DNA of 64,000 nt, from assembly GCA_007376385.1 (NCBI GenBank), contig VMGC01000001.1:160001-224000 (forward strand). The letters are read 5' to 3'. Shown here piece by piece: positions 1 to 48,002 of the stretch. Position 1 is the first letter of the stretch. Each line of letters begins with the position of its first letter. Under the pieces are notes generated by a model, which made no database searches, was not told the origin of the DNA, and saw only the letters and a list, made by a program, of their open reading frames with translations. The position numbers and the translations under genes are program-made. This DNA comes from Parcubacteria group bacterium Gr01-1014_8. Lineage in GTDB: Bacteria; Patescibacteriota; Minisyncoccia; Phycocordibacterales; UBA2100.

Positions 1-1557
1 TACGCGACGAGCGTTGCTCTCGCATATGCGAAAGAGGCGGGGGTAAAACCGCGCGAGCTTGCAGAAAAACTTGTTGCATCGATGGGATCAGTTGAGGGAA
101 TCTCAAAGATTGATATTGCGGGGCCGGGGTTCATAAATTTTACTCTCGACCCTCGATTCGTATACAAGTCGCTCGAAGCGGGTCTTATGCAGGAAGAGCA
201 ATGGGGGAGCGGACTTTCGCGAAAAGGAAAGAAGATGATGATCGAATACACTGACCCGAACCCGTTCAAGGAATTTCACATTGGCCACCTTGTTCCGAAT
301 ACGCTTGGAGAAAGCATCTCGCGATTGCTAATGTTTTCCGGGGCGGAGGTAAAGCGCGCGAACTATCAGGGCGATGTCGGTATCCATGTCGCAAAGTCCC
401 TTTTCATTCAGTTGGAGAAGGGTATTACAGACCCGACAATCGAGGACCTTGCAAGCGCCTATCCTGAGGGCTCGCGCCGATACGATGAGGACCCTGAAGC
501 GAAAAAAGCCATTGATGAGCTGAACAAAAAGATTTACGACAAGAGCGACGAGAAGATCAATGCGTTGTACGCAAAGGGAAGAGCGCTCTCTCTCGCGCAC
601 TTTGAGGAGTTATACAAAGTTCTTGGAACAACATTCGATTACTATTTTTTCGAAAGCGAGACGGGACCGATCGGCGTGAAGGAAGTGCGGGCGCATCCGG
701 ACGTGTTCGAAGAAAGCGAAGGCGCCGTTGTGTTCAAGGGGGAGAAGTACGGCTTGCATACGCGTGTATTCATCAACAAGCTTGGGCTCCCGACGTACGA
801 AGCAAAAGAACTCGGGCTCGCGCGAATGAAGGCAGAGAAATATCAATTCGATCTTACGCTCACAATAACCGCAAATGAGCAGGCGGAATACTTCAAGGTG
901 GTCATGAAAGCCATGGAACTTTCGCTTCCTGACCTTCGCGGCAAACTCGCGTTCAAGACAAATGGTTTGCTTCGTTTTGCTGACGGAAAAATGTCATCAC
1001 GCCTTGGCAATATCATTACCGGGGAGGAGTTGATAGGCGACCTGAAAGAGAAGGCCATGGAACGCGCATCAAAGAGCAGGGCTACGGACGCGCAAAAACT
1101 GGCTGGTGAAGTTGCGGTTGGTGCCATCAAATATCAAATACTCAAGCAAGGGTTTGGGAAAGATATTATTTTCGACAGAGAACGGGCGCTCTCGCTAGAG
1201 GGCGATTCCGGTCCATACCTTCAGTACGCACATGCCCGAACGAGTGCAATTGTTGAAAAAGCGAGGGGGACGGGCATCGTCGTGAAATTCGATACTGCGA
1301 GCGGTGCGAGCGAACTCGTACGCCGCTTATACCGATTCAACGAGATTGTTATGCGCGCGACAGACGAGCTTGAGCCGCATCTTGTTGCCACCTACCTCAT
1401 CAATCTTGCGGCGGCATTCAATAGCTGGTACGCGAATGAGCAGATACTCGATGGAACACTTGGTGCGTCTCACAAAGTTGCGATAACTGATATCACGAGG
1501 CAGACGCTCAAAAATGGACTTTGGCTCCTCGGTATTCCGGCGCCGGAAAAGATGTGA
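1..1557 (+). CDS. argS: arginine--tRNA ligase (5' end truncated by the window edge)
   Basis: The ORF from 82 extends in frame back to position 1 (translation ...ALAYAKEAGVKPRELAEKL...). Class I HIGH-type motif HIGHLV, ArgRS core and the C-terminal DALR anticodon-binding region are present. Ends in TGA. Confidence 0.9.
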   Translation, partial: YATSVALAYAKEAGVKPRELAEKLVASMGSVEGISKIDIAGPGFINFTLDPRFVYKSLEAGLMQEEQWGSGLSRKGKKMMIEYTDPNPFKEFHIGHLVPNTLGESISRLLMFSGAEVKRANYQGDVGIHVAKSLFIQLEKGITDPTIEDLASAYPEGSRRYDEDPEAKKAIDELNKKIYDKSDEKINALYAKGRALSLAHFEELYKVLGTTFDYYFFESETGPIGVKEVRAHPDVFEESEGAVVFKGEKYGLHTRVFINKLGLPTYEAKELGLARMKAEKYQFDLTLTITANEQAEYFKVVMKAMELSLPDLRGKLAFKTNGLLRFADGKMSSRLGNIITGEELIGDLKEKAMERASKSRATDAQKLAGEVAVGAIKYQILKQGFGKDIIFDRERALSLEGDSGPYLQYAHARTSAIVEKARGTGIVVKFDTASGASELVRRLYRFNEIVMRATDELEPHLVATYLINLAAAFNSWYANEQILDGTLGASHKVAITDITRQTLKNGLWLLGIPAPEKM

Positions 1558-1595
1558 AGCGTTTCAGCGGAGCATATTTCTGTTAGGATGTCGAA

Positions 1596-4500
1596 ATGGC
1601 CGAACAAAACTCACAAGAAAAGAGCGAGACTGCAAAACGAGAAGAGGAGGTGTTGAAGTTTTGGAAAGAGAACACTATCTTCGAGAAATCGCTCAAAAAG
1701 AGAGCTCCGAAAGGCGAGTTTGTTTTTTATGATGGACCTCCGTTTGCGACTGGCTTGCCGCATACGGGTTCGCTCCTTTCATCCATCATCAAAGATGTCG
1801 TGCCGCGCTATAAAACAATGCGGGGATACGTGGTGCAGAGGCGCTGGGGATGGGATTGCCATGGGCTTCCTATCGAGAGCCTTATCGAAAAACGTCTGAA
1901 CTTAAAGACGAAGAAAGACATCCTTGATATCGGCATCGACACATTCAACGAGGCTGCACGGGCGAGTGTGATGGAATTTGAGCACGAGTGGGAAAAGTAT
2001 GTCGACCGTGTCGGCCGATGGGTCGACTTCAAGAATTCCTACAAAACGATGGATAACTCGTACATCGAGAGCGTATGGTGGGCTTTGAAGCAGTTGTATG
2101 AAAAATCGCTGTTGTATGAAGGCAATAAAGTACTCATGTATTGTCCTCACTGCGAGACGCCGCTTGCGAAAGCGGAGATAGCGATGGACCATACGTACAA
2201 AGACATTACAGAAGAGGCGGTCACTGTCCGGTTCAAGATAAAACGTCCGTCGCGCTACGGACTTCCCGAGAATACTCACTTCCTTGCGTGGACGACAACA
2301 CCGTGGACATTGCCGGGCAACGTCGGTCTTGCAGTCGGTCCTGGCATTAGTTATGTTCTTGTGCCGGAATCCGGCGGGATGGCCATCGTTGCCAAGGATC
2401 GCCTCGACATCTTGAAAAAAAGTGCACGTCCGCGGGTAAGCGTCGACATGGGCAGGGAATATAAAGGTTCGGAGCTTGTCGGGATGGAATATGAGCCTTT
2501 GTATGACGTTGTTTCGGTCATCAGACATGGGGGCAATAAACACGTTGTACTCCCTGCGGATTTTGTGTCGACGGAAGAGGGAACGGGCGTCGTGCACACG
2601 GCAGTGATGTACGGAGAAGATGACTTCGCACTGGGGCAAAAAGAAAATCTGCCCAAAGTGCAACTACTCAATCCGAATGGCACATACAACAAAGAAGCGC
2701 CAGCATTTTTACAAGGAAAATATATCAAGGAAGCAGAGAGAGATATTAAACGCGATCTCGAATCGCGCGGACTCCTTTTTGAACGCGAGAATCATACGCA
2801 CTCATATCCGCATTGCTATCGATGCGGGACGCCATTAATTTACAATGCTGTCGCGTCGTGGTTCATCAATATTCAGAAAGTGAAGGACAAAATGCTTTCA
2901 GAGAACGAAAAAGTACAGTGGGTACCGGAACATCTGAAGCACGGGCGCTTCAAGAATATCGTGGAGAATGCGCCAGATTGGACAATTTCGCGCAATCGCT
3001 TTTGGGCGTCGCCGCTTCCTATCTGGAAAGAGAAGAAAGGGAATCGCGTGATGGTTGTCGGTTCACTCGACGAGATAAAGAAAAAGTCGAAGAAAAGCGG
3101 TAATAAATATTTTGTGATGCGGCATGCGTGGTCAACCGGGAATGAGAATGGCACGCTGAGTTCAGACAAGGATGCGGACATCGGTCTGACAGAGAAAGGG
3201 ATCGCGGACGCTCGCGCATCCCTGCGAGCATTCGGAACGAAAGTGGATATCATCTATACGTCGTCCTTTAAACGAACCCGCGAGACTGCAGATATAGCAG
3301 CGGAGGTGCTTGGCGTGCCAAAGGAACATATCAAATCTGATGATAGATTAGGAGAATGCAATTTTGGTCCATACAGCGGGAAGACGCTTGAGGAGTACCA
3401 CGCGGCATTCCCGGAAAAGGCAGAGCGATTCAGTAAAGGCCCTGAAGGTGGGGAGACGTACGTAGAAATTCGTCGACGTATGATGTCGGTTCTGTCCGAA
3501 TTGGAAAAAAGTGAGAAAGGCAAAAATATCCTTATCATCTCGCACGGCACGCCGCTCTGGCTTCTCTGTGCATCTGCGAGAGGGCTCTCTCGCGAAGAGG
3601 CGCTCTCGACTCGCGAGACGGATTATCCGAAACAAAGTGTTATCACCGAACTCTCGTTCGTACCGCTTCCCTATAACGCCGACTATGAATTGGACCTTCA
3701 TCGACCGTATACGGATTCATTGACGCTCCTCGATGAAGAGGGGCGAGAATACGAACGAATTCCGGAGGTCGTGGACTGCTGGGTCGAGTCCGGCTCCATG
3801 CCCTTTGCGGAACAGCACTATCCATTCGAGAATAAATCGGTATTTGAAAAGAGAGCGCCGGGCGATTTTATCGCTGAATATATAGCTCAAACGAGGACGT
3901 GGTTCTACTATATGCACGCGATGGGCGTTCTCCTATTCGGAAGGCTCGCATTCCGAAATGTTGTTTCGACGGGAACCATTCTTGCGGCAGATTCATCTAA
4001 AATGTCGAAGTCGAAGGGAAACTACACGGACCCTTTGGTTGTTATGGACCGCTATGGCGCGGATGCGTTGCGCTTCTATTTGATGGGAAGCGTCGTGATG
4101 CAGGCAGAGGATCTGAATTTTCGCGATGAGGATGTTCGCGATACGCATAATCGCGTTATGGGGCTTTTGTGGAATACATATAAATTCTATGAGCTCTACA
4201 AAAAAGAATACGAAGGAAAAGCTTTTGCGAAAAGAAGCACGAATTTGTTGGACCAATGGGTCATCGCACGGCTTAATGAAACTGTGCGCACAGTTACAAA
4301 TGCGCTTGATGCGTTCAATATGCCGCCTGCAGCACGGGCCATACGAGATTTCGTTGAAGATTATTCCACGTGGTATGTGCGCCGCTCCAGGGAGCGCGTG
4401 AAGGGTTCTGATAAGGCGGATAAACAATTCGCGCTTGCGACGCAAAGAGAAGTACTGCTCGATGTTGCGAAAATGCTCGCGCCCATTGCTCCTTTCATAG

Positions 4501-37995: not shown

Positions 37996-38496
37996 ATGAA
38001 TAAAACTAAACAACAGAAAGTAGAGCTGGTAGAAAATATGGCGAAGTCTCTTAAAGAGGCTGCGTCCACTGTTTTCGTCGGCTTTAAGGGGATGAACGTT
38101 GCGGACGAAAGTGCTATGCGACGTTCTCTGAGAGGCGACAGTGTGAAGTACACCGTCTTTAAAAAGACGCTGCTTCGCCGCGCGCTCGAAAGTCTCGGTC
38201 ACGCACCGAGCGAAGTGCCGCTTGAAGGGGAGGTTGCTGTCGCATATGGCGGCGGGGACGATGTCACCGCAGCGGCGAGACTTATCCATGATTTCGGAAA
38301 GAAGTTCAAGGATAGACTCGTCATTCTCGGAGGTATCTTTGAGGGCAAGCTTGCGGGGGAAGCGCTGATGCAGGAGATCGCAACAATTCCGTCGATGCTG
38401 GGCTTGCGGGGCATGTTTGCGCAGGTTCTCAACTCTCCGCACCAACGATTTGCAGTTGTGCTCAGCGCTGTTGCCGAGAAAAAATCGCAGTCTTAA
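37996..38496 (+). CDS. rplJ: 50S ribosomal protein L10
   Basis: MNKTKQQKVELVENMAKSLKEAASTVFVGFKGMNVADESAMRRSLR... is the L10 signature. It is followed by rplL. Confidence 0.9.
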   Translation: MNKTKQQKVELVENMAKSLKEAASTVFVGFKGMNVADESAMRRSLRGDSVKYTVFKKTLLRRALESLGHAPSEVPLEGEVAVAYGGGDDVTAAARLIHDFGKKFKDRLVILGGIFEGKLAGEALMQEIATIPSMLGLRGMFAQVLNSPHQRFAVVLSAVAEKKSQS

Positions 38497-38521
38497 TTAT
38501 CTAATTAATCCTAATTAACGT

Positions 38522-38878
38522 ATGTCAAACGAACAAATTATTGAAGCAGTAGAGAAAATGACAGTGCTCGAACTTAATACGCTTGTGAAGGCGATTGAGG
38601 AGAAGTGGGGAGTATCCGCTGCAGCAGTTGCGGTCGCAGGACCAGCAGCGGCAGCTGGGGAAGAGAAGACGGAATTCACTGTCGAATTGACGGCTGTAGG
38701 GGAACAAAAAGTTGCCGTCATCAAGGTAGTGAAAGAAGCTCTTGCGCTCGGATTGAAGGAAGCGAAAGACTTGGTAGACGCCGCTCCCAAGGTCCTCAAA
38801 GAGAATATGAAAAAGGAGGACGCAGAAGTTCTCAAGAAAAAGCTTGAGGAAGCCGGTGCCAAAGTAGCTCTGAAATAA
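38522..38878 (+). CDS. rplL: 50S ribosomal protein L7/L12
   Basis: [31 protein letters not shown]..., an Ala/Gly hinge, and the C-terminal domain ending [14 protein letters not shown]. Confidence 0.95.
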
Positions 38879-39335
38879 TATTTCAGAGTTTTTCACCGGC
38901 TTGGGAGGGGTGAGAAGCGAATACTTGGAGCTTCACAAGGCCGGAGCCCGACGGGGCGAGGCGGGGTCGCGCAATTCGCCAGCAGGCGAATATGTGTGGC
39001 GGGGAACAGTTGGTCTCCCGTGGGGGAATAAATTGCAGTTGACTGCGATTTATCCGCTGCCGGAGGTAAGCGCCGATGCGAGCTTGCGAGCAGGCGCTAG
39101 GGCGACTTCTTCTGGTGTCGCGTTGAAAACCATGGGTGACCAAGAAAATAACGAGTGCAACGAGTATATTTTCTGAAGTACTCTTGTGGTGTTTTCAAGG
39201 AGGAGTTCTGTGATAAGCAGAGCGACGACGGGTAGTGCTAAGGTAACTCTCAAATAATTTTCTCGTTCTAAACAAAAAGCCCTCGTTGGGGCTTTTTGTT
39301 TAGAGTAGAGGAAAGGCGGCCGAAGCCGCCCTTCG

Positions 39336-39449
39336 TCAGTGCTTTAGAAGATACTCGAGGATCGCAAGAGTGATAATGGGGGAAACCGCGACCAGAGCGG
39401 CAATCGCCCAAAAGAGCGCAAAGATGATCTCATCGCGCTTCCAAGGCAT
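39336..39449 (-). CDS. small hydrophobic single-TM peptide (37 aa: MPWKRDEIIFALFWAIAALVAVSPIITLAILEYLLKH)
   Basis: ATG start with the SD sequence AAGGAG 7 nt upstream. A minus-strand intrinsic terminator lies immediately downstream (gggcggc-ttcg-gccgcc followed by a T-rich tail). Confidence 0.45.
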   Translation of the reverse strand: MPWKRDEIIFALFWAIAALVAVSPIITLAILEYLLKH

Positions 39450-39592
39450 GACACTTCTCCTTTGCCGTAGTTGGCTGCAAATATTGAGCATGTCGGCACT
39501 TGCAGCCAACAACGAGAAGAGGTCTAGGAGAAGTACGTTGGGTGAGCGTATATACGTCAACAAAGAGGAAAGCGGCCGTGAGGCCGCTCCCG

Positions 39593-39679
39593 TCACTTGC
39601 CCTTCCCAAAATAGGTGACAATAAGGGCAACTATTGTGCCGCCCCCGATGCCCATACCGATAATTATTAGGTCACGCAT
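39593..39679 (-). CDS. small hydrophobic single-TM peptide (28 aa: MRDLIIIGMGIGGGTIVALIVTYFGKGK)
   Basis: ATG start with the SD sequence GAGGAG 7 nt upstream. A minus-strand terminator lies immediately downstream (gcggcc-tcac-ggccgc followed by TTTCCTCTTT). Confidence 0.45.
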   Translation of the reverse strand: MRDLIIIGMGIGGGTIVALIVTYFGKGK

Positions 39680-39827
39680 GACGGTGCTCCTCTTCCGAAA
39701 ACCGGACGCGGGAGGCGAGTTTCTCGCTTTCTGCGTCCGGTCAGAAAAGGTCTGGGCGGAACTATGCGCCAGGCGGACTTTTTTTGCAACACTGTATTTT
39801 TGAAGGGTGCTGCTATACAATCTCGCC

Positions 39828-40442
39828 ATGTCTACGGATTTTCTAGCAGCATTTATAAAAAATCCGGCTCAGGCAAAAGTCTTGCGGGTTCTCGTATCGA
39901 ATGAGACTCTGCAATTGACCGTAACGACTATCGCAAAACGAGCTGAGGTAAGTGTCGCTCTTGCCGAGAGAGAATTGCATGTGCTTGCAAGACTGGAAAT
40001 CGTAAAGAAAATTGAACCGCAATTTTCAAAGCATAAAGCAAAACAGGAGCAAGTTGAACATTGGATGTTCAATAAAGAATTTAAATATGCTCTGTCACTT
40101 ACCGCATTCGTGCAAGAGACCTCCCCCGTGGAATTCAAGAACGTCGAGCGTGCGCTTAAAAGTTCAGGACGAATTTCTGCCGTCGTACTCTCAGGTATCT
40201 TCATGGGGGACCCTACGAGGCCTGCAGATCTTCTCATCGCGGGCGACGCCTTGAACGAGAGCCGTCTTGAGAAGGCAGTGAAAACGCTTGAGCCGATGTT
40301 CGGCCGCGAGATACGGTATGCCGCCTTTTCAACACCCGAATTTCGGTATCGACTGACTATTCAGGACCGCCTTTTTAGGGATACTCTGGAATTTCCGCAC
40401 CGTATCCTGATCAGCAAGAACGGAATCTTCAAAAAGGCTTAA
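39828..40442 (+). CDS. hypothetical protein with an N-terminal HTH-like segment
   Basis: I trimmed the start to MSTDFLAAF.... ...TIAKRAEVSVALAERELHVLARLEIVKK... looks HTH-like. The C-terminal domain is unassigned. Confidence 0.45.
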   Translation: MSTDFLAAFIKNPAQAKVLRVLVSNETLQLTVTTIAKRAEVSVALAERELHVLARLEIVKKIEPQFSKHKAKQEQVEHWMFNKEFKYALSLTAFVQETSPVEFKNVERALKSSGRISAVVLSGIFMGDPTRPADLLIAGDALNESRLEKAVKTLEPMFGREIRYAAFSTPEFRYRLTIQDRLFRDTLEFPHRILISKNGIFKKA

Positions 40443-42131: not shown

Positions 42132-43110
42132 TCGTGCCAAATACGATAGTCCTTTGACAACTGAAGAACGACACAATTCTTGCTCGTAAGAGCAGGAGAA
42201 AAAGAAAGAATAAGAAATTTTCTGAAAAGAAAATTTCTTTTCGCGCCGTCGCTCGCGGATCATGAGAATAAATTCTCGCGATACCGCTCGCTCGGCGCGA
42301 TCAACAACATTGATTCGGCTATTGTCTTTGGCCGGATCAGTGCAGGAAAAAATGTATTTTTGCGCAACCACTTTTCACAACCACAAGGTTGTAGAAAAGT
42401 GCAGTCCTGTAATAGGGAAAGCAAAAATCAAAAACAATCCGCCTTCGCACACGTTGTGTGCTATGGCGGGACAAAGAAAGTCCCGACACGCCAAAAGGTG
42501 TGACGGGCGCAATGCTTGTCCGTCTTGTAGCGGACAAGCAAAGTAATAAACCAATAACGCGGTTCTCAAATTTCCAAACGGGAATTCTGAGAAAGGGCGT
42601 GCGGCGGATGCCTTGACAGAAGAAGGCGATGAAGGACGCAGTTCGGCGGCGATACGCTTCGGGGAGGTGCCAAGCAACCTTCGATCCGGAGATTTCCGAA
42701 TGGGGAAACCCCATAGAGCAACCCTCTATGACTCATGCTCTAAACAGCATAGAGAGCAGACCTTGGGAAGTGAAACATCTCAGTACCAAGAGGAAAAGAG
42801 ACCAATAGGTATTCCCTTAGTAGCGGCGAGCGAAACGGGAAAAGCACAAACTCAGCCACAAAATCGAAGCGCGATTTATTTCGCGAATCGATTTTGGGGA
42901 TGGGGGTTATAAGGCTACAGCGCTAGCAATAGGTAGAGTAAAAAAATGCTTAGTTAGAGGAAGCGCCTGGGAAGGCGCGCAACACAGGGTAATAGCCCCG
43001 TACTCGAAAACGAAGCATCTCTATGGCTGTAGTTCTTGAGTAACTCGAGACATGAATAGCTCGGGTGAATTTGCCGGGACTAACCGGTAATGCTACATAC
43101 TTCTTCTGAT

Positions 43111-43153
<43 letters not shown>

Positions 43154-44660
43154 GGTGAGGGGAGTGAAATAGACCTGAAACCGCATGCCTACAAGGAGTC
43201 GGAGCGGGCACCACAGTGCTCTTGAAATTTTTTGCAGAATTTTTGCAAAAGATCTTTTCGGGTGCAGTGTGGTGTCCGTCACGGCGTGCCTATTGAAGAA
43301 TGAGCCAACGAGTTAATGCATACAGCTGGCTAAGCCCTTTTCGGGTGGAGCCGTAGCGAAAGCGAGTGTGAATAGCGCGACTATAGTTGTATGTATTAGA
43401 CCCGAAGCCAGGTGAGCTACCCATGAGCAGGCTGAAGTTTATAGAAATATAGATGGAGGGCCGAACCCGTAGATTGTGCAACATCTTGGGATGACTTGTG
43501 GGTTGGAGTGAAAAGCTTATCGAACCTGGTAATAGCTGGTTCTCTCCGAAAGAGCTTTCGGGCTCGCGTCATGGATTACATATGGGGGTAGAGCACTGGA
43601 AGAAGCGGATAGGCCGAAAGGCCACTGCCTCTATCAAACTCCGAATACCATATGCGTACCGTGGCAGTTAGACGATGGGGGCGAAGCTCCATTCGTCAAA
43701 AGGGAAACAGCCCAGACCGCCAGTTAAGGTCCCTAAATCTATGCTCAGTGCATTTCCAAGGAGGTGAAATTTCACAGACAGTGAGGATGTTGGCTTAGAA
43801 GCAGCCACCATTCAAAGAAAGCGTAACAGCTCACTCACTCAGAGATTTCGCGCCACAAATGATCGGGGCTTAAGCATAGTACCGAAACTGCGGATTCAGT
43901 ACGTCTTCGGATGTACTGTCTGGTAGGAGAGCGTTCTCTGTGCGATGAAGGTAAAGGGGTGACCCATGCTGGAGCGCAGGGAAGTGAAAATGTTGGCACG
44001 AGTAACCGCAAGGCAGGTGAGATTCCTGCCCGCCGAAAGAACAAGGTTTCCTTCGCAATGGAGATCAACGAAGGGTTAGTCGGTCCTAAGCCAATGGCGA
44101 ATGCCGCAGGCGATGGATTCATGGTTAATATTCCATGACTCGGAATTGGTGCGATGGAGTGACGGAGTGTTGTACCTCAAGCATATTATGGATTTATGTT
44201 CAGGCCGTGAGGATGCTTTTCAGGAAAATCCGGAGAGCACAGTCCAAGCGGAGTGGAAAAGTGGAGGCCTCGGCCGAAACTGATTTGAGGGAGCACGCTT
44301 CCAAGAAAAACTTCTAAGCTTATAACCAATGACGAACCGTACCGCAAACCGACACAGGTGTTCTGGTCGAATAGACTAAGGCGAACGGGTGAGAGATGCT
44401 CAAGGAACTCGGCAAAAAAGTGGCCGTACGTTAGCAATAAGGCCTGCCCAATACAGTGATGTATGGGGCCGCAGATAATTATTCCCAGGCGACTGTTTAC
44501 CAAAAACACAGCTCCCTGCAAACTCGTAAGAGGAAGTATAGGGGGTGATGCCTGACCAATGCCGGAAGGTCAAGTGTGGTCGGTCTCATATAGCAATATA
44601 TGTTGCTGGCACTACATAAGCCCCGGTCAATGTCGGCGATAACTATAATCGTCCTAAGGT

Positions 44661-45360
44661 TTCCCGCTTAAGAAATTGAGCGGGGAAGGACTGGGACGAT
44701 CATAGAATCGAATAAACAGCGAAAGAAAATACCAAAGCTGCCTCTCTGTGCAGTAATGCACAAGTGGTCCTAGAAACATGGCTATATGCTGGAAACCCTA
44801 TGGTATAATTATTCCATAGATGAGTAATCAGCAGGAAAGGCCAGAGATGAAAGGGTGGATCGTCGGTTTTACCGACGGCGAAGGATGCTTTTCAATAAGC
44901 ATGTTTCGCAACAAAACCACCAAGTTTGGTTGGCAAGTATTCCCAGAGTTTGTAATAACTCAGGGAAAGAAAAGTTTGCCAGCACTCGAAACTTTCCAAA
45001 ACTTCTTTAAGTGCGGAAAGATATACGAGAACGCTAGGTACGATAATCATCGTGAATATCTGTATCGATACTGTGTACGATCAATTTCGGATTTGCGGGA
45101 GAAAATAATCCCGTTTTTTCGAAAAAACAAATTGTATACAGCCAAACAAAAAGATTTCGAACTGTTTGCAGATGTCATAGAAAAGGTGTATCGAAAAGAA
45201 CATCTTTTAGAATCGGGATTGCGAGCGATAGCGCGCAAGATCGAACAGATGAATCGCAAGAAGAAATCAACATTTCTGGAATCCTCAGAGACTACACGCC
45301 ATGCCCCTAAATCTAAATAAGATCGGGTGAAGATATAGTCCAAAGGTAATAGGAACCTAG
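44661..45360 (+). mobile_element. group I intron 1 (after the E. coli U1917 equivalent) encoding an intact LAGLIDADG endonuclease
   Basis: The upstream exon ends in T, the intron ends in G (omega-G), and the downstream exon resumes at AGCGAAATTCCT. Conserved R-like (cagagactacacg) and S (gaagatatagtcc) core elements are present. Confidence 0.75.
44820..45320 (+). CDS. LAGLIDADG homing endonuclease (single-motif, 166 aa)
   Basis: Motif IVGFTDGEGCFS with the pattern characteristic of LAGLIDADG homing endonucleases. The 3' end of the ORF overlaps the intron R element. Confidence 0.8.
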   Translation: MSNQQERPEMKGWIVGFTDGEGCFSISMFRNKTTKFGWQVFPEFVITQGKKSLPALETFQNFFKCGKIYENARYDNHREYLYRYCVRSISDLREKIIPFFRKNKLYTAKQKDFELFADVIEKVYRKEHLLESGLRAIARKIEQMNRKKKSTFLESSETTRHAPKSK

Positions 45361-45372
45361 AGCGAAATTCCT

Positions 45373-45681
45373 AGAAGACTGGGACTATCAGTCAAAAACT
45401 ACTGATAGCAAATTCTGCTATATGCTGGAAACTCCGAGTATCCAACAGTACCCTGACGAAATGGAAGGGTAAAAATCTGTTGGTGCGGACAATCAGCAGG
45501 GAAGTCGTAATTGACCCCTCAACGACTACACGCAGAACTCCACGAAGCTCATCAATCCGATGCTGTTTCGGGAGGTGATATAGTCTGAACTGCATGGCGA
45601 CATGCAGAGTTTGGCTCGCGCCAAACCGCTTCAAACAAATTGAAGTCATTATTCTCACTAGAGAATAGTAAGTAACAGAAT
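45373..45681 (+). mobile_element. group I intron 2a (ORF-less; carries a decayed homing-endonuclease N-terminal remnant)
   Basis: Follows the 12-nt exon agcgaaattcct. Contains the R element tcaacgactacacg, the S element gtgatatagtc and a terminal G before the exon TGTCTGGT. Its 5' region is similar to intron 1 (gactgggac..gctatatgctggaaac). The remnant reading frame (aat cag cag gga agt cgt aat tga) parallels the homing-endonuclease 1 N-terminus SNQQERP. Confidence 0.5.
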
Positions 45682-45689
45682 GTGTCTGG

Positions 45690-46149
45690 TAACTGGATTG
45701 CCAGTTAGTACAGCGATGTACTACAAAAGATCCGCCTGTCAGCAATGACGGTAGTAATTCGGCTTATAACGGTGGAATCCTACTCGGAGCACTTTAGACG
45801 AGGTGCGTTGATGAAAGGATAATACCGTGGGAAGTCTTGTGAGTTTCGTGGAGGGCAACCTCCGTGCGAGAGCGCCTCGCCCGGTTGAGGGCGGTCGGTC
45901 GGCATTGGTGCTGACTGTCTGATCTGGAGCCTCTGTCCAGGCTCTCGCATCAATCTTCTCATCATGGTGATGGGAACTTCCACGAAACTCGCAATGACCC
46001 CGTAACGACTTAGCGCGAAAGCGCTGGAAGTGTCTCAAAAACACTTAACACGCCGACTCTGCAATGCGCAGAAGAAGATATAGTCTAATGCCCGAAGTAA
46101 TTCGGGGAGAGTGTCATATTGCGCGAAATATGACGATCAAACTCAAATG
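45690..46149 (+). mobile_element. group I intron 2b (ORF-less; carries a decayed homing-endonuclease remnant homologous to the intron 3 endonuclease)
   Basis: Follows the 8-nt exon tgtctggt. Contains the R-like element cgtaacgacttagc, the S element gaagatatagtc and an omega-G before the exon AAGTTCAGACG. The remnant reading frame is KDNTVGSLVSF..., compared with MDNTVGSLTQL in intron 3; the ATG has been lost. Confidence 0.5.
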
Positions 46150-46699
46150 AAGTTCAGACGCGCACGAATGGTATAACGACTTGGGAACTGTCTCGAGCAT
46201 TTGCCCGGTGAAAATACAAGGGCGGTGAAGATGCCGCCTTCCTGCAGCTAGACGAAAAGACCCCAGAAGCTTTACTGTAATTTGGTATTGAGGATACGAT
46301 TTTTCCGCGTAGCGTAAGTGGGAGGCTTTGAAGCAAGGATCTCGGTTCTTGTGGAGCCGTCAATGCAACACCACTCCTAAAAATTGTATTTTCTAACTTC
46401 CATAGCAAAACTGTGGAAAGACAGTACCTGATGGACAGTTTCGGTGGGGCGCTGTCCTCCTAAAAAGTAACGGAGGAGCCTATTAAGGTCACCTAGGTGC
46501 GAATGGAAACCGTACCGGTAGTGCAATGGCAAAAGGTGGCTTGACTGCGAGTCGTACGTGACAAGCAGGCGCGAAAGCGGAGCATAATGAACCGATGGTT
46601 CGCATTAGATGCGACCAAAGATTAACGGATAAAAGTTACTCTGGGGATAACAGGCTGGTTTCGCCTAAGAGTCCAAATCGACGGCGAAGTTCGGCACCT

Positions 46700-47542
46700 T
46701 AACAAATCGGGGTGCGACGTAAGCAATTACGTAGCTTGGCTCACACATGAGACCAAGAACCAACATGTGTGCAGTTCAAATCGTGGCTTATAACGGTGAA
46801 CTCCATGGTATTATAGAACAATCGTTCTATAGTATATGGACAATACCGTGGGAAGTTTAACTCAATTACAGCGATCAATAATTATCGGTAGTCTCTTAGG
46901 TGATGGCTACTTACGGATCGTACCGCGCAGATACAATGCGTTTCTCGAGATCAATCATTCGTATTCACAAAAAGAATATGTTGATTGGACATTCGAGATG
47001 CTCAAATCGATCTGTAGAAGCGGTCCGAAGATGCGAAACGGAAATGGTGTGCGAATTGCATACCGTTTTACGACTCGTCAAATGCCGGAAATCACCGAAT
47101 TGTTCAAAGTGTTTTATGCCAATGGCAAGAAATAAATTTCGAACAATTTAAGATTAGATCCGATAATGCTTGCTGTATGGTTCATGGATGATGGAAGTAG
47201 GTGTAGCGTTGAGAACGTGTACCTTAATACTCAGCAGTTTAATTTCGATGATCAAGAAAAATGCAGGGCAATGCTCATGCGGCTTGGTATCGAAACAACT
47301 CTCAATAAGGACAAGAAGTATTTGAGAGTGAGGATAAAAACATCCTCAATCCCAAAACTTCATAAAATTATCTCACCGCACATCATTCCATCCATGAAAT
47401 ATAAATTGGGTTATAACCCCGTAGAGACTCGCTTCTTCGGAAGCGGAGTTACTGACTCTGTAATGAGCAGTAGCTAACACGCCACCTCCTTTCAATAGAA
47501 AGGATGATGATATAGTCCGATCCTTCCAGTAATGGAAGAAAA
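46700..47542 (+). mobile_element. group I intron 3 (near the E. coli 2499/2500 equivalent) with a double-motif LAGLIDADG gene
   Basis: The upstream exon ends ...GGCACCT, the intron ends ...cattG, and the downstream exon resumes CGATGTCGGCTCATC. The S element is gatgatatagtcc. Confidence 0.7.
46836..47477 (+). pseudogene. double-motif LAGLIDADG homing endonuclease interrupted by a single in-frame TAA (47133-47135)
   Basis: First motif IIGSLLGDGYL and second motif LAVWFMDDGS are in the same reading frame. The 30 nt between the stop and the next ATG also read in frame (ISNNLRLDPI), consistent with one ancestral ORF of about 213 aa. Confidence 0.7.
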
Positions 47543-47786
47543 AATGACATTGCGATGTCGGCTCATCTTAGCGCGGGGCTGGAGAAGGTCCCAAGCGTAT
47601 GGCTGTTCGCCATTTAAAAAGGTACGTGAGCTGGGTTCAAACCGTCGTGAGACAGGTTGGTCTTAATCTGCTGTAGGCGTTGATTCTTGAGGAGACTCAT
47701 TTTTAGTACGAGAGGACCGAAATGAACTGACCTCTGGTCTGGGGGCTGTAGTACCAACTGCATCGCCCCGTAGCTATGTCGGGATT

Positions 47787-47819
<33 letters not shown>

Positions 47820-48002
47820 GACTCCAAGATTAGGAATCGTTATAGACTCGTGGGAGATGACCACGTTGATAGGCACCAGGTGGAAGCGCAGTAATGCGTT
47901 GAGCCGAGGTGTACTAATTAGTCGACAGAATTCTCGAAAGGAATTTTGGGAGTCGCGATACTGGTTTATTGCGACGAGCGAGGACGAAGCGAAAATTTAT
48001 TG

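Follow-up and report, generated by a model that had tools for sequence, protein, structure and literature searches.

Tandem genes for small hydrophobic peptides with a predicted Shine-Dalgarno-masking leader between rplL and a helix-turn-helix gene in a Parcubacteria genome

What is encoded on the minus strand between rplL and a divergent helix-turn-helix (HTH) gene of Parcubacteria group bacterium Gr01-1014_8? The window, that is, the whole stretch of 64,000 nucleotides (nt) analysed here (contig VMGC01000001.1, positions 160,001 to 224,000; all coordinates without another label are those of the window), had been read from its letters alone as carrying at 39336-39679 two tandem genes for small hydrophobic peptides with a single transmembrane (TM) helix, each with a strong Shine-Dalgarno (SD) sequence and its own terminator, and possibly encoding type I toxin-like peptides, bacteriocin-like peptides or accessory micro-subunits of membrane complexes. 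Both small open reading frames (ORFs), their SDs and their single-TM character are present at these positions; each ORF stands in its own unit running from promoter to terminator, and homologous units occur in three other genomes. We describe them as small hydrophobic-peptide genes with an SD-masking leader, which are genes of a known kind but of a previously undescribed family. By analogy with known systems, toxin-like peptides with leader-gated translation, which would make each unit a candidate type I toxin, are the best reading, to which we assign a probability of roughly 45%. The two ORFs are as follows.

39679-39593, minus strand: ORF1, 28 amino acids, MRDLIIIGMGIGGGTIVALIVTYFGKGK, with one Gly-rich TM helix and a GKGK tail
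39449-39336, minus strand: ORF2, 37 amino acids, MPWKRDEIIFALFWAIAALVAVSPIITLAILEYLLKH, with one TM helix

Each ORF has its SD 7 nt before the ATG (GAGGAG at 39692-39687 for ORF1 and AAGGAG at 39462-39457 for ORF2), and the highest Kyte-Doolittle mean over 17 residues is 2.36 in ORF1 and 2.57 in ORF2, which places both among small hydrophobic peptides of less than about 60 residues. The whole window was scanned for ORFs of 18-60 amino acids that combine a TM-grade hydrophobic stretch with an SD of 5 nt or longer; the four matches were ORF1, ORF2 and two ORFs lying antisense inside large genes, and second-order Markov shuffles predict 0.63 such small ORFs per 64 kb. The combination of SD and TM helix in ORF1 and ORF2 is not explicable by chance, and we are largely confident that both are genuine, expressed small-protein genes. 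They had been expected to escape routine annotation, which is true of ORF1, an unannotated ORF with no entry in the protein collection, but not of ORF2, which is already in GenBank as the hypothetical protein TSC87093.1 (locus tag G01um10148_198, a singleton cluster). Longer ORF readings of 78 and 86 amino acids were rejected; they are absent from the protein collection and would cross a promoter and a leader hairpin.

The strong SDs of ORF1 and ORF2 are atypical for this genome because its other long ORFs rarely have one. An SD is lacking in 39 of the 52 long ORFs of the window, 13 have one of at least 4 nt, and three have one of at least 5 nt. No purine tract precedes rplJ, rplL, the HTH gene and others, and in several ordinary genes a TATAAT-like box stands 6-10 nt ahead of the start codon (the start codons inspected were 31761, 35221, 37996, 38522, 39828, 41190 and, on the minus strand, 52272). 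These features suggest that leaderless mRNAs are widespread in the Gr01-1014_8 organism.

The architecture of the two units can be compared with that of units on three further metagenomic contigs, L087, L170 and L171, which are among the nearest relatives (HTH identity 66-67%). The features of the window units, including their 5′ untranslated regions (UTRs), are as follows.

39784..39789, minus strand: predicted -35 box of unit 1, TTGCAA; L087 has the same hexamer in the same geometry (TTGCAA-16-CATAGT-6-AGACC)
39761..39766, minus strand: predicted -10 box of unit 1, CATAGT, 17 nt after the -35 box and identical in L087, L170 and L171
39680..39753, minus strand: 5′ UTR of unit 1, 74 nt, its structure supported by an inverted repeat, single-sequence folds, consensus structure and covariation
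39558..39591, minus strand: terminator of unit 1, GCGGCC-TCAC-GGCCGC inside a 10-pair stem, followed by the tail UUUCCUCUUUGUUG
39532..39560, minus strand: predicted promoter of unit 2, TTGACG (39560-39555), a 17-nt spacer and CGTACT (39537-39532)
39450..39525, minus strand: 5′ UTR of unit 2, 76 nt, its structure supported by an inverted repeat, folds, the covariance model and covariation
39307..39333, minus strand: terminator hairpin of unit 2, GGCGGC-TTCG-GCCGCC (39330-39315), followed by UUUCCUCU
39267..39304, both strands: bidirectional terminator with perfect 16-bp arms, common to rplL (plus strand) and unit 2 (minus strand), with homologous elements in L087 and L171

From the position of its promoter, the predicted transcription start of unit 1 is A39753, which gives the layout TTGCAA-17-CATAGT-7-AGACCTTTTCTG. 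The predicted start of unit 2 is A39525, in the layout TTGACG-17-CGTACT-6-AGACCTCTTCTCG; its -10 box is weak, and its geometry is that of unit 1 and of the units in L087, L170 and L171. In the leader of unit 1, the anti-SD sequence CCUUUUCUGA (39750-39741) is predicted to pair with UUCGGAAGAGG, which contains the SD GAGGAG, at the base of a long hairpin whose inner arms form 19 bp (39741-39701). Likewise, the 5′ sequence CCUCUUCUCG of unit 2 (39522-39513) is predicted to pair with the CGG..AAGGAG region around an inner hairpin of 15 bp (39514-39466). At the 3′ ends, a hairpin followed by a U-tract had been proposed for each ORF; both GC hairpins are present, but the tails read TTTCCTCT and contain no clean U run. 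The hairpin of unit 1 (39591-39568; 10 pairs, seven of them GC, loop of 4) is the sole terminator-like match of the scan in 38400-40400, and that of unit 2 fails the T-run rule of the scan, its tail TTTCCTCTACTC being too T-poor. The box TTTCCTCT is nevertheless common to unit 1, unit 2, L087 and L171, whose hairpin stems differ, and the longer tail of unit 2, TTTCCTCTACTC(T/C)AAAACAAAAAGCCCC, is also kept in L171. A long-distance interaction between the 3′ box UUUCCUCU and the SD was considered but not adopted; on paper it could form in three of four units, not in unit 2, and it is absent from the minimum-free-energy folds.

Judged from this shared layout, the ORF1 and ORF2 units are paralogues within one family of transcription units that is restricted to a lineage of a few groundwater Parcubacteria. 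The metagenome-assembled genome of Gr01-1014_8, like the H41, H43 and H52 relatives, comes from groundwater wells at Hainich. The family units are always convergent with rplL and divergent from the conserved HTH gene. Their promoter is of the sigma-70 type (TTGACA or TTGCAA, a spacer of 16-18 nt, and CATAGT), the leader has the 5′ end AGACCUCU, which is predicted to pair with the SD and so form the base of a covarying 27-bp hairpin, and an ORF of 28-37 codons with a single TM helix is followed by a GC hairpin and UUUCCUCU. In L171, the order is TTGACA-18-CATAGT, GGACCTCTTTCG, hairpin, CGGCAGAGGAG, 8 nt, ATG, MRKFLPLIFLVGMITILMLIPALVLVLP, hairpin, TTTCCTCTACTCC and the rplL terminator. The layout of L170 is the same, its peptide MKKFLPLIFLLGMITILILIPALVLVLP being identical to that of L171 at 25 of 28 residues, and the contig stops inside the terminator. 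The unit of L087 begins with TTGCAA-16-CATAGT-6-AGACCTCTTTCG and continues through a hairpin, the SD GGGGGAGGA, 6 nt, a GTG start, a TM peptide of 35 residues and a hairpin to TTTCCTCT. Upstream of this intact unit, L087 has a second hairpin with the TTTCCTCT motif (1431-1620, minus strand), before which no clean TM ORF is present, and which probably represents a tandem unit that has decayed; L087 also has a promoter-like site of its own kind, ATTACA-17-CATAAT, at 1620-1592. A composite regular expression of promoter and AGACC box matched family units only within 1.3 Mb of fetched DNA, and the leader covariance model, which matches its training leaders by construction, revealed no further copy in 526 kb of relatives. 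Further paralogues in the window were found neither by tblastn or blastn nor by the 3′-motif search or the covariance model.

The conservation of these units is uneven. Leader identity among units is 67-79%, and the peptides are no longer recognisably similar; when unit 2 is compared with L170, the leader is 79-83% identical and the ORF 47%, which is the level of shuffled sequence. Pairwise BLASTP among the family peptides gave no significant similarity, and the charged flank is C-terminal in ORF1 and N-terminal in the L170 and L171 peptides. Beyond the family, ORF1 had no Pfam or NCBIfam match even at E <= 10, and the only match of ORF2 in these collections, NCBIfam YmiA at E = 0.89, is not significant and is not a toxin family. 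None of the profiles of known type I toxin families in Pfam and NCBIfam (Hok, Ldr, Fst, TisB, Ibs, ShoB, TxpA and others) matched. A phmmer search with ORF2 against 1.84 billion representative proteins returned ORF2 itself only, as did a concatenated ORF2+ORF1 query, and a back-translated 8-mer scan of metagenome contigs with both peptides returned nothing. Comparison by tblastn, from which the sequence-only reading had expected to learn about relatives, likewise yielded nothing from plasmids and no paralogue in the window.

Structural evidence comes from the leader. RNAalifold folds the five leaders into one hairpin of 27 pairs, 14 of which show compensatory changes, and at its base the 5′-proximal CCUCU/UCG pairs with CGG/AGAGG, the latter being the SD. 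In the alignment fitted to the model, 85% of cells are paired, compared with 36-44% in controls whose partners were slid by 1-3 columns. The 14 double-change pairs exceed both the 1-5 of these slid controls and the 5.8 obtained by shuffling, and none of 500 shuffles reached 14. The single sequences also fold more stably than their shuffles (z = -6.6 for 39300-39760 and z = -8.3 for L087). According to this model, the SD is sequestered by an anti-SD in a conserved, covarying helix, as in type I toxin mRNAs.

Other evidence concerns coding. Between L170 and L171, the small ORF differs by eight synonymous and three conservative non-synonymous changes (non-synonymous rate dN 0.051, synonymous rate dS 0.477, dN/dS about 0.1; binomial p = 0.002 for the synonymous excess), and the HTH gene of these two contigs is 94% identical with dS = 0.74. 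This pattern of substitutions indicates purifying selection on the orthologous peptide of L170 and L171. Moreover, in all five units the start codon is SD-spaced and the frame stays open until just before the terminator, and all five peptides are of TM-grade hydrophobicity. Across 26.6 kb of spacers between rplL and the HTH gene (29 loci), small ORFs of strong hydrophobicity are confined to the minus strand; those outside the family are a different small gene in L135 and, in L002, a doubtful SD-less ORF of 59 residues. Nucleotide conservation in the absence of a conserved ORF, which would have implied an RNA element, is not what we observed: the ORF and its hydrophobicity are kept, and the peptide sequence is not.

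We propose the following mechanism. Transcription of the units is probably strong, and the mRNA would begin about 7 nt past the -10 box with AGACCUCUU, a start deduced from the promoter. The leader of about 75 nt would fold into one long hairpin that locks the ribosome-binding site and restrains translation of the 28-37 codons, which begin 6-8 nt past the SD and encode one TM helix. This locking of the SD would matter more than usual because the other genes of this genome hardly use SDs. Once the leader is opened or processed, the peptide would be made, insert in the membrane and perturb it in the manner of a type I toxin, and the module as a whole would be accessory DNA in the hypervariable spacer between rplL and the HTH gene. 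In this scheme we infer the transcription starts, the translational gating, the membrane insertion and the toxicity, and we assume an antitoxin RNA by analogy.

Among the three functions that had been offered for the peptides, the type I toxin-like one fits best, but its antitoxin was not found; the micro-subunit is disfavoured and the bacteriocin is unsupported. The toxin-like traits are the tandem units, their patchy presence, the decayed copy in L087, the variable locus and the diverged peptides. Descriptors of type I toxin mRNAs in T1TAdb include pairing of SD and anti-SD and stem-loops at the 5′ and 3′ ends (PMC8594479). Type I toxin mRNAs with an SD-sequestering stem-loop, such as that of aapA/IsoA of H. 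pylori (PMC6733600; T1TAdb, PMC8594479), likewise encode peptides of fewer than 60 residues, are monocistronic, have 5′ and 3′ stem-loops and have an anti-SD shortly upstream that pairs with the SD; their genes also occur in tandem copies, at variable intergenic positions and with a patchy distribution. However, neither an antisense or divergent small RNA (sRNA) gene nor sequence similarity to a toxin family was found for the present units, and their host is a member of the Patescibacteria, or Candidate Phyla Radiation (CPR), whose genome otherwise scarcely uses SDs. A 2025 paper describes type I systems as known so far only from Proteobacteria, Firmicutes and Tenericutes (PMC12390103). Our literature search found no publication linking a type I toxin with Patescibacteria and none joining the Candidate Phyla Radiation, small proteins and toxin-antitoxin systems.

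Fst-like peptides typically begin with M-[K/R]-D-L, continue into a single TM helix and finish with a short charged tail. ORF1 resembles Fst/Ldr-type toxins in its M-[K/R]-D-L start, its TM helix and its charged C-terminal tail, and this likeness is one of layout only; ORF1 differs from them in lacking a Pfam or NCBIfam match at E <= 10 and an RNAII-like convergent antitoxin with direct repeats.

Several observations weigh against the toxin-like reading. An antisense sRNA or an overlapping plus-strand transcript, which the sequence-only reading had named as the thing to look for, was sought by sequence scans and not found. At the scan threshold there is no antisense promoter-like site in the window, L087, L170 or L171, and a relaxed antisense scan gave only two weak GATAAT boxes, which have poor -35 boxes and arise from Ile-Ile codons. 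The four hairpins of the units are not followed by a T run on the plus strand, there is no plus-strand terminator inside the units, and no segment complementary to the units exists elsewhere in the 64-kb window, which is part of a contig of 407,897 bp. No Pfam, NCBIfam or PHROG family matches the peptides significantly. Purifying selection is demonstrated for the L170/L171 peptide only, and selection on ORF1 and ORF2 follows from family membership only because neither has a close orthologue. The covariation comes from five sequences only, and the alignment on which it was assessed was fitted to the model. Finally, the cost of opening positions -15 to +3, computed from the predicted start site, is 12.8 kcal/mol in unit 1 and 8.4 kcal/mol in unit 2, which is moderately above background (7.0 +/- 2.7 kcal/mol in 52 control ORFs, maximum 13.8); it is 12.1 kcal/mol in L171, 8.8 in L170 and 21.4 in L087, which alone is extreme. 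Because these energies are modest, the 5′-terminal hairpin could be an mRNA stabiliser instead of a gate. Opening energy was used in place of the pairing probability of the SD, which was discarded as a test of sequestration; it is high in the controls also (median 0.72) and fails to separate the units from them.

Given that the scans turned up no antisense antitoxin, the reading as a benign small membrane protein is a serious rival. In this alternative, which involves neither toxin nor antitoxin, the peptides modulate or stabilise a membrane protein or a stress response, and the 5′ hairpin stabilises or tunes the mRNA or acts as a translational switch that depends on conditions. We regard this as a real, though tentative, possibility. 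All of the evidence that the genes are real applies to it equally, and the opening energies of units 1 and 2 lie inside the upper range of ordinary genes. The units diverge from a MarR-like HTH gene, with -35 boxes that are back to back or overlapping, as is common for regulators and the genes they control. Two genes downstream is one whose product has a mechanosensitive-channel TM-helix domain. However, the units are patchy among the closest relatives, with a copy number of 1-2, the HTH and channel-domain genes are kept in many relatives without them, the peptides share no detectable sequence, and the units are monocistronic and outside any operon. The distribution of charge in the peptides, and hence their topology, is not conserved, which argues against a conserved partner.

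The same observations bear on accessory micro-subunits. KdpF, CydX, AcrZ and MgtS have the size (28-37 amino acids) and the single TM helix of the present peptides, and their genes lie in or beside the operon of the partner complex and are conserved with it. In contrast, the units described here are monocistronic between rplL and the HTH gene, absent in half of the nearest relatives and unconserved in sequence. A micro-subunit of the KdpF/CydX/AcrZ type is disfavoured by the lack of a nearby partner operon, by the patchy presence and by the unconserved topology; there are relatives that retain every neighbour (rplJ-rplL, the HTH gene, the 140-aa ORF and the channel-domain gene) but have no units.

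A stabilising role of the hairpin also has precedents. Gram-positive mRNAs can have 5′-terminal stabiliser hairpins and STAB-SD elements. In the present units, too, a stem-loop begins no more than about 3 nt from the predicted 5′ end, and the leader has an SD-type sequence. However, the paired SD is here the SD of initiation, and its predicted partner mimics the anti-SD of 16S rRNA, which would point to repression beyond stability alone.

A bolder form of the toxin reading supplies the missing antitoxin. The units would then be the first type I toxin modules of the CPR, silenced by the 5′ anti-SD hairpin, with the convergent rplL transcript as antitoxin. This highly expressed transcript would overlap the unit across the bidirectional terminator and replace a dedicated sRNA gene, and the peptide would be released once ribosomal-protein transcription drops, in a cell whose other genes would be largely SD-less or leaderless. 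We consider this proposal unlikely.

Also improbable are exported or host-directed membrane-active peptides, akin to phenol-soluble modulins or leaderless bacteriocins, that a CPR cell would turn against its host or competitors. CPR bacteria have an episymbiotic way of life, and the small, tandem, monocistronic genes with a strong promoter and SD, the fast diversification of the peptides and their lineage-specific distribution would suit an episymbiotic cell of this kind. However, the TM helices are uniformly hydrophobic, not amphipathic and cationic, and selection between L170 and L171 is purifying, not diversifying. The bacteriocin-like function that had been suggested also finds no support in the immediate neighbourhood, where the seven flanking ORFs contain no leader, transporter, immunity or modification domains, nor do the peptides themselves have a leader.

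The weakest alternative, a functional element of RNA or DNA only (a hairpin insulator, terminator or sRNA) with incidental ORFs, would account for the non-coding parts being the best conserved (leader against shuffle-level ORFs between the window and L170), for the strongly structured hairpins and, as the genome hardly uses SDs, for a purine tract that is merely one strand of a helix, but we find it very improbable given the SD-spaced start and open frame to the terminator in five of five units (the chance of the open frame alone being about (61/64)^28 to (61/64)^37 per unit), the TM-grade hydrophobicity of all five peptides, the 8:3 synonymous excess, the low chance rate in the window and the absence of an Rfam family match. 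In the whole window, Rfam identified only 23S rRNA, 5S rRNA and a group I intron, and within 38700-40000 every match at E <= 10 scored far below the gathering score. A leader peptide or attenuator was rejected because there is no minus-strand gene downstream of the units; the minus strand there is antisense to rplL only.

CPR/Patescibacteria have tiny, poorly understood genomes, in which small proteins and regulation at the RNA level are barely known. The units provide a concrete case, with a conserved promoter, a covarying leader predicted to mask the SD, and apparently SD-dependent initiation in an SD-poor genome. If the peptides are toxic, the known range of type I toxin-like modules would widen to include a superphylum from which none has been reported; if they are not, the units would be a clean example of translational gating and of rapid turnover of small proteins at a hot spot of a ribosomal operon.

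The genes that flank the units in the window are as follows.

37996-38496, plus strand: rplJ
38522-38878, plus strand: rplL
39828-40442, plus strand: MarR-like HTH gene, divergent from the small-ORF units

On the 3′ side of rplL, GC-rich non-coding sequence of about 355 nt comes first, followed by the bidirectional terminator and the two minus-strand small ORFs. Over about 60 related loci, the spacer between rplL and the HTH gene ranges from 38 to 2274 nt; the distance is 40-180 nt in most relatives (L001, L003, L007, L015, L084, L089-L092, L172, L173 and others), and the spacer of L002 (6357-8536) houses folK and folP. Because this spacing is hypervariable, the 520 nt with the small ORFs can be regarded as accessory DNA in a hot spot. 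Units are present in four of about eight nearest relatives and absent from L084, L088, L172 and L173. Species genomes of GTDB were scanned by way of rplL, which gave 80 loci, mostly of other phyla, and the three closest had no units. On the same strand of its spacer (3190-3492), L135 has a different SD-preceded small TM ORF, MLEQLQAFGDVRNWPSLILAIGVVVGTIYLLLH, with a TTGACT-17-CATAAT promoter and its own terminator.

The unit promoter adjoining the HTH gene, which is that of unit 1 in the window, stands back to back with the HTH promoter, and in L171 the -35 boxes of the two promoters overlap (regions: window 39796-39863; L171 647-676; L170 237-264). The -10 box of the HTH gene, TATACAAT, stands 6-8 nt ahead of its ATG, and an imperfect inverted repeat of 27 nt across the HTH start in the window may be an operator. 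Beyond the HTH gene are the 140-aa ORF, the gene with the mechanosensitive-channel TM-helix domain and then a 23S rRNA gene of 5.4 kb. The latter (42579-47938, with features at 44820-45320 and 45363-45607) measures 5.36 kb, compared with 2.9 kb for the model. Inside it are a group I intron and an ORF whose product has a LAGLIDADG homing-endonuclease domain (E = 2e-25).

All contigs with the exact window proteins are 100% identical to the window. Two Logan contigs of SRR8863434, identical to it in the same degree, abut at 39173-39187 with an overlap of 15 nt inside the rplL 3′ element, and this junction suggests a branch of the assembly graph that is due to a repeat or to variation in the population.

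The rplL 3′ element and the small-ORF units are distinct. The final 24 nt of rplL (GGKVTLK-stop) recur 63-355 nt downstream in about 25 Parcubacteria loci, and the second copy nearly always encodes the same residues, with synonymous differences only. Such loci are the window (38879-39257, plus strand), L088 (4878-5023), L153, L114, L131, L138, L097, L107, L108, L113, L003 and others, and L108 and L113 have a third, decayed copy. The segment between the copies, 38879-39233 in the window, is a conserved structured RNA without an Rfam match. It has covarying hairpins (GGGGAAC..GUUCCCC and GUUGARAACC..GGUUYUCAAGGAGG) and the conserved blocks GGARAGCAG and CGACGACGGCU, and in the window it resembles a composite of two elements. 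It could be a small element that targets the 3′ end of rplL and brings a replacement gene end, or it could be a functional RNA of the 3′ UTR.

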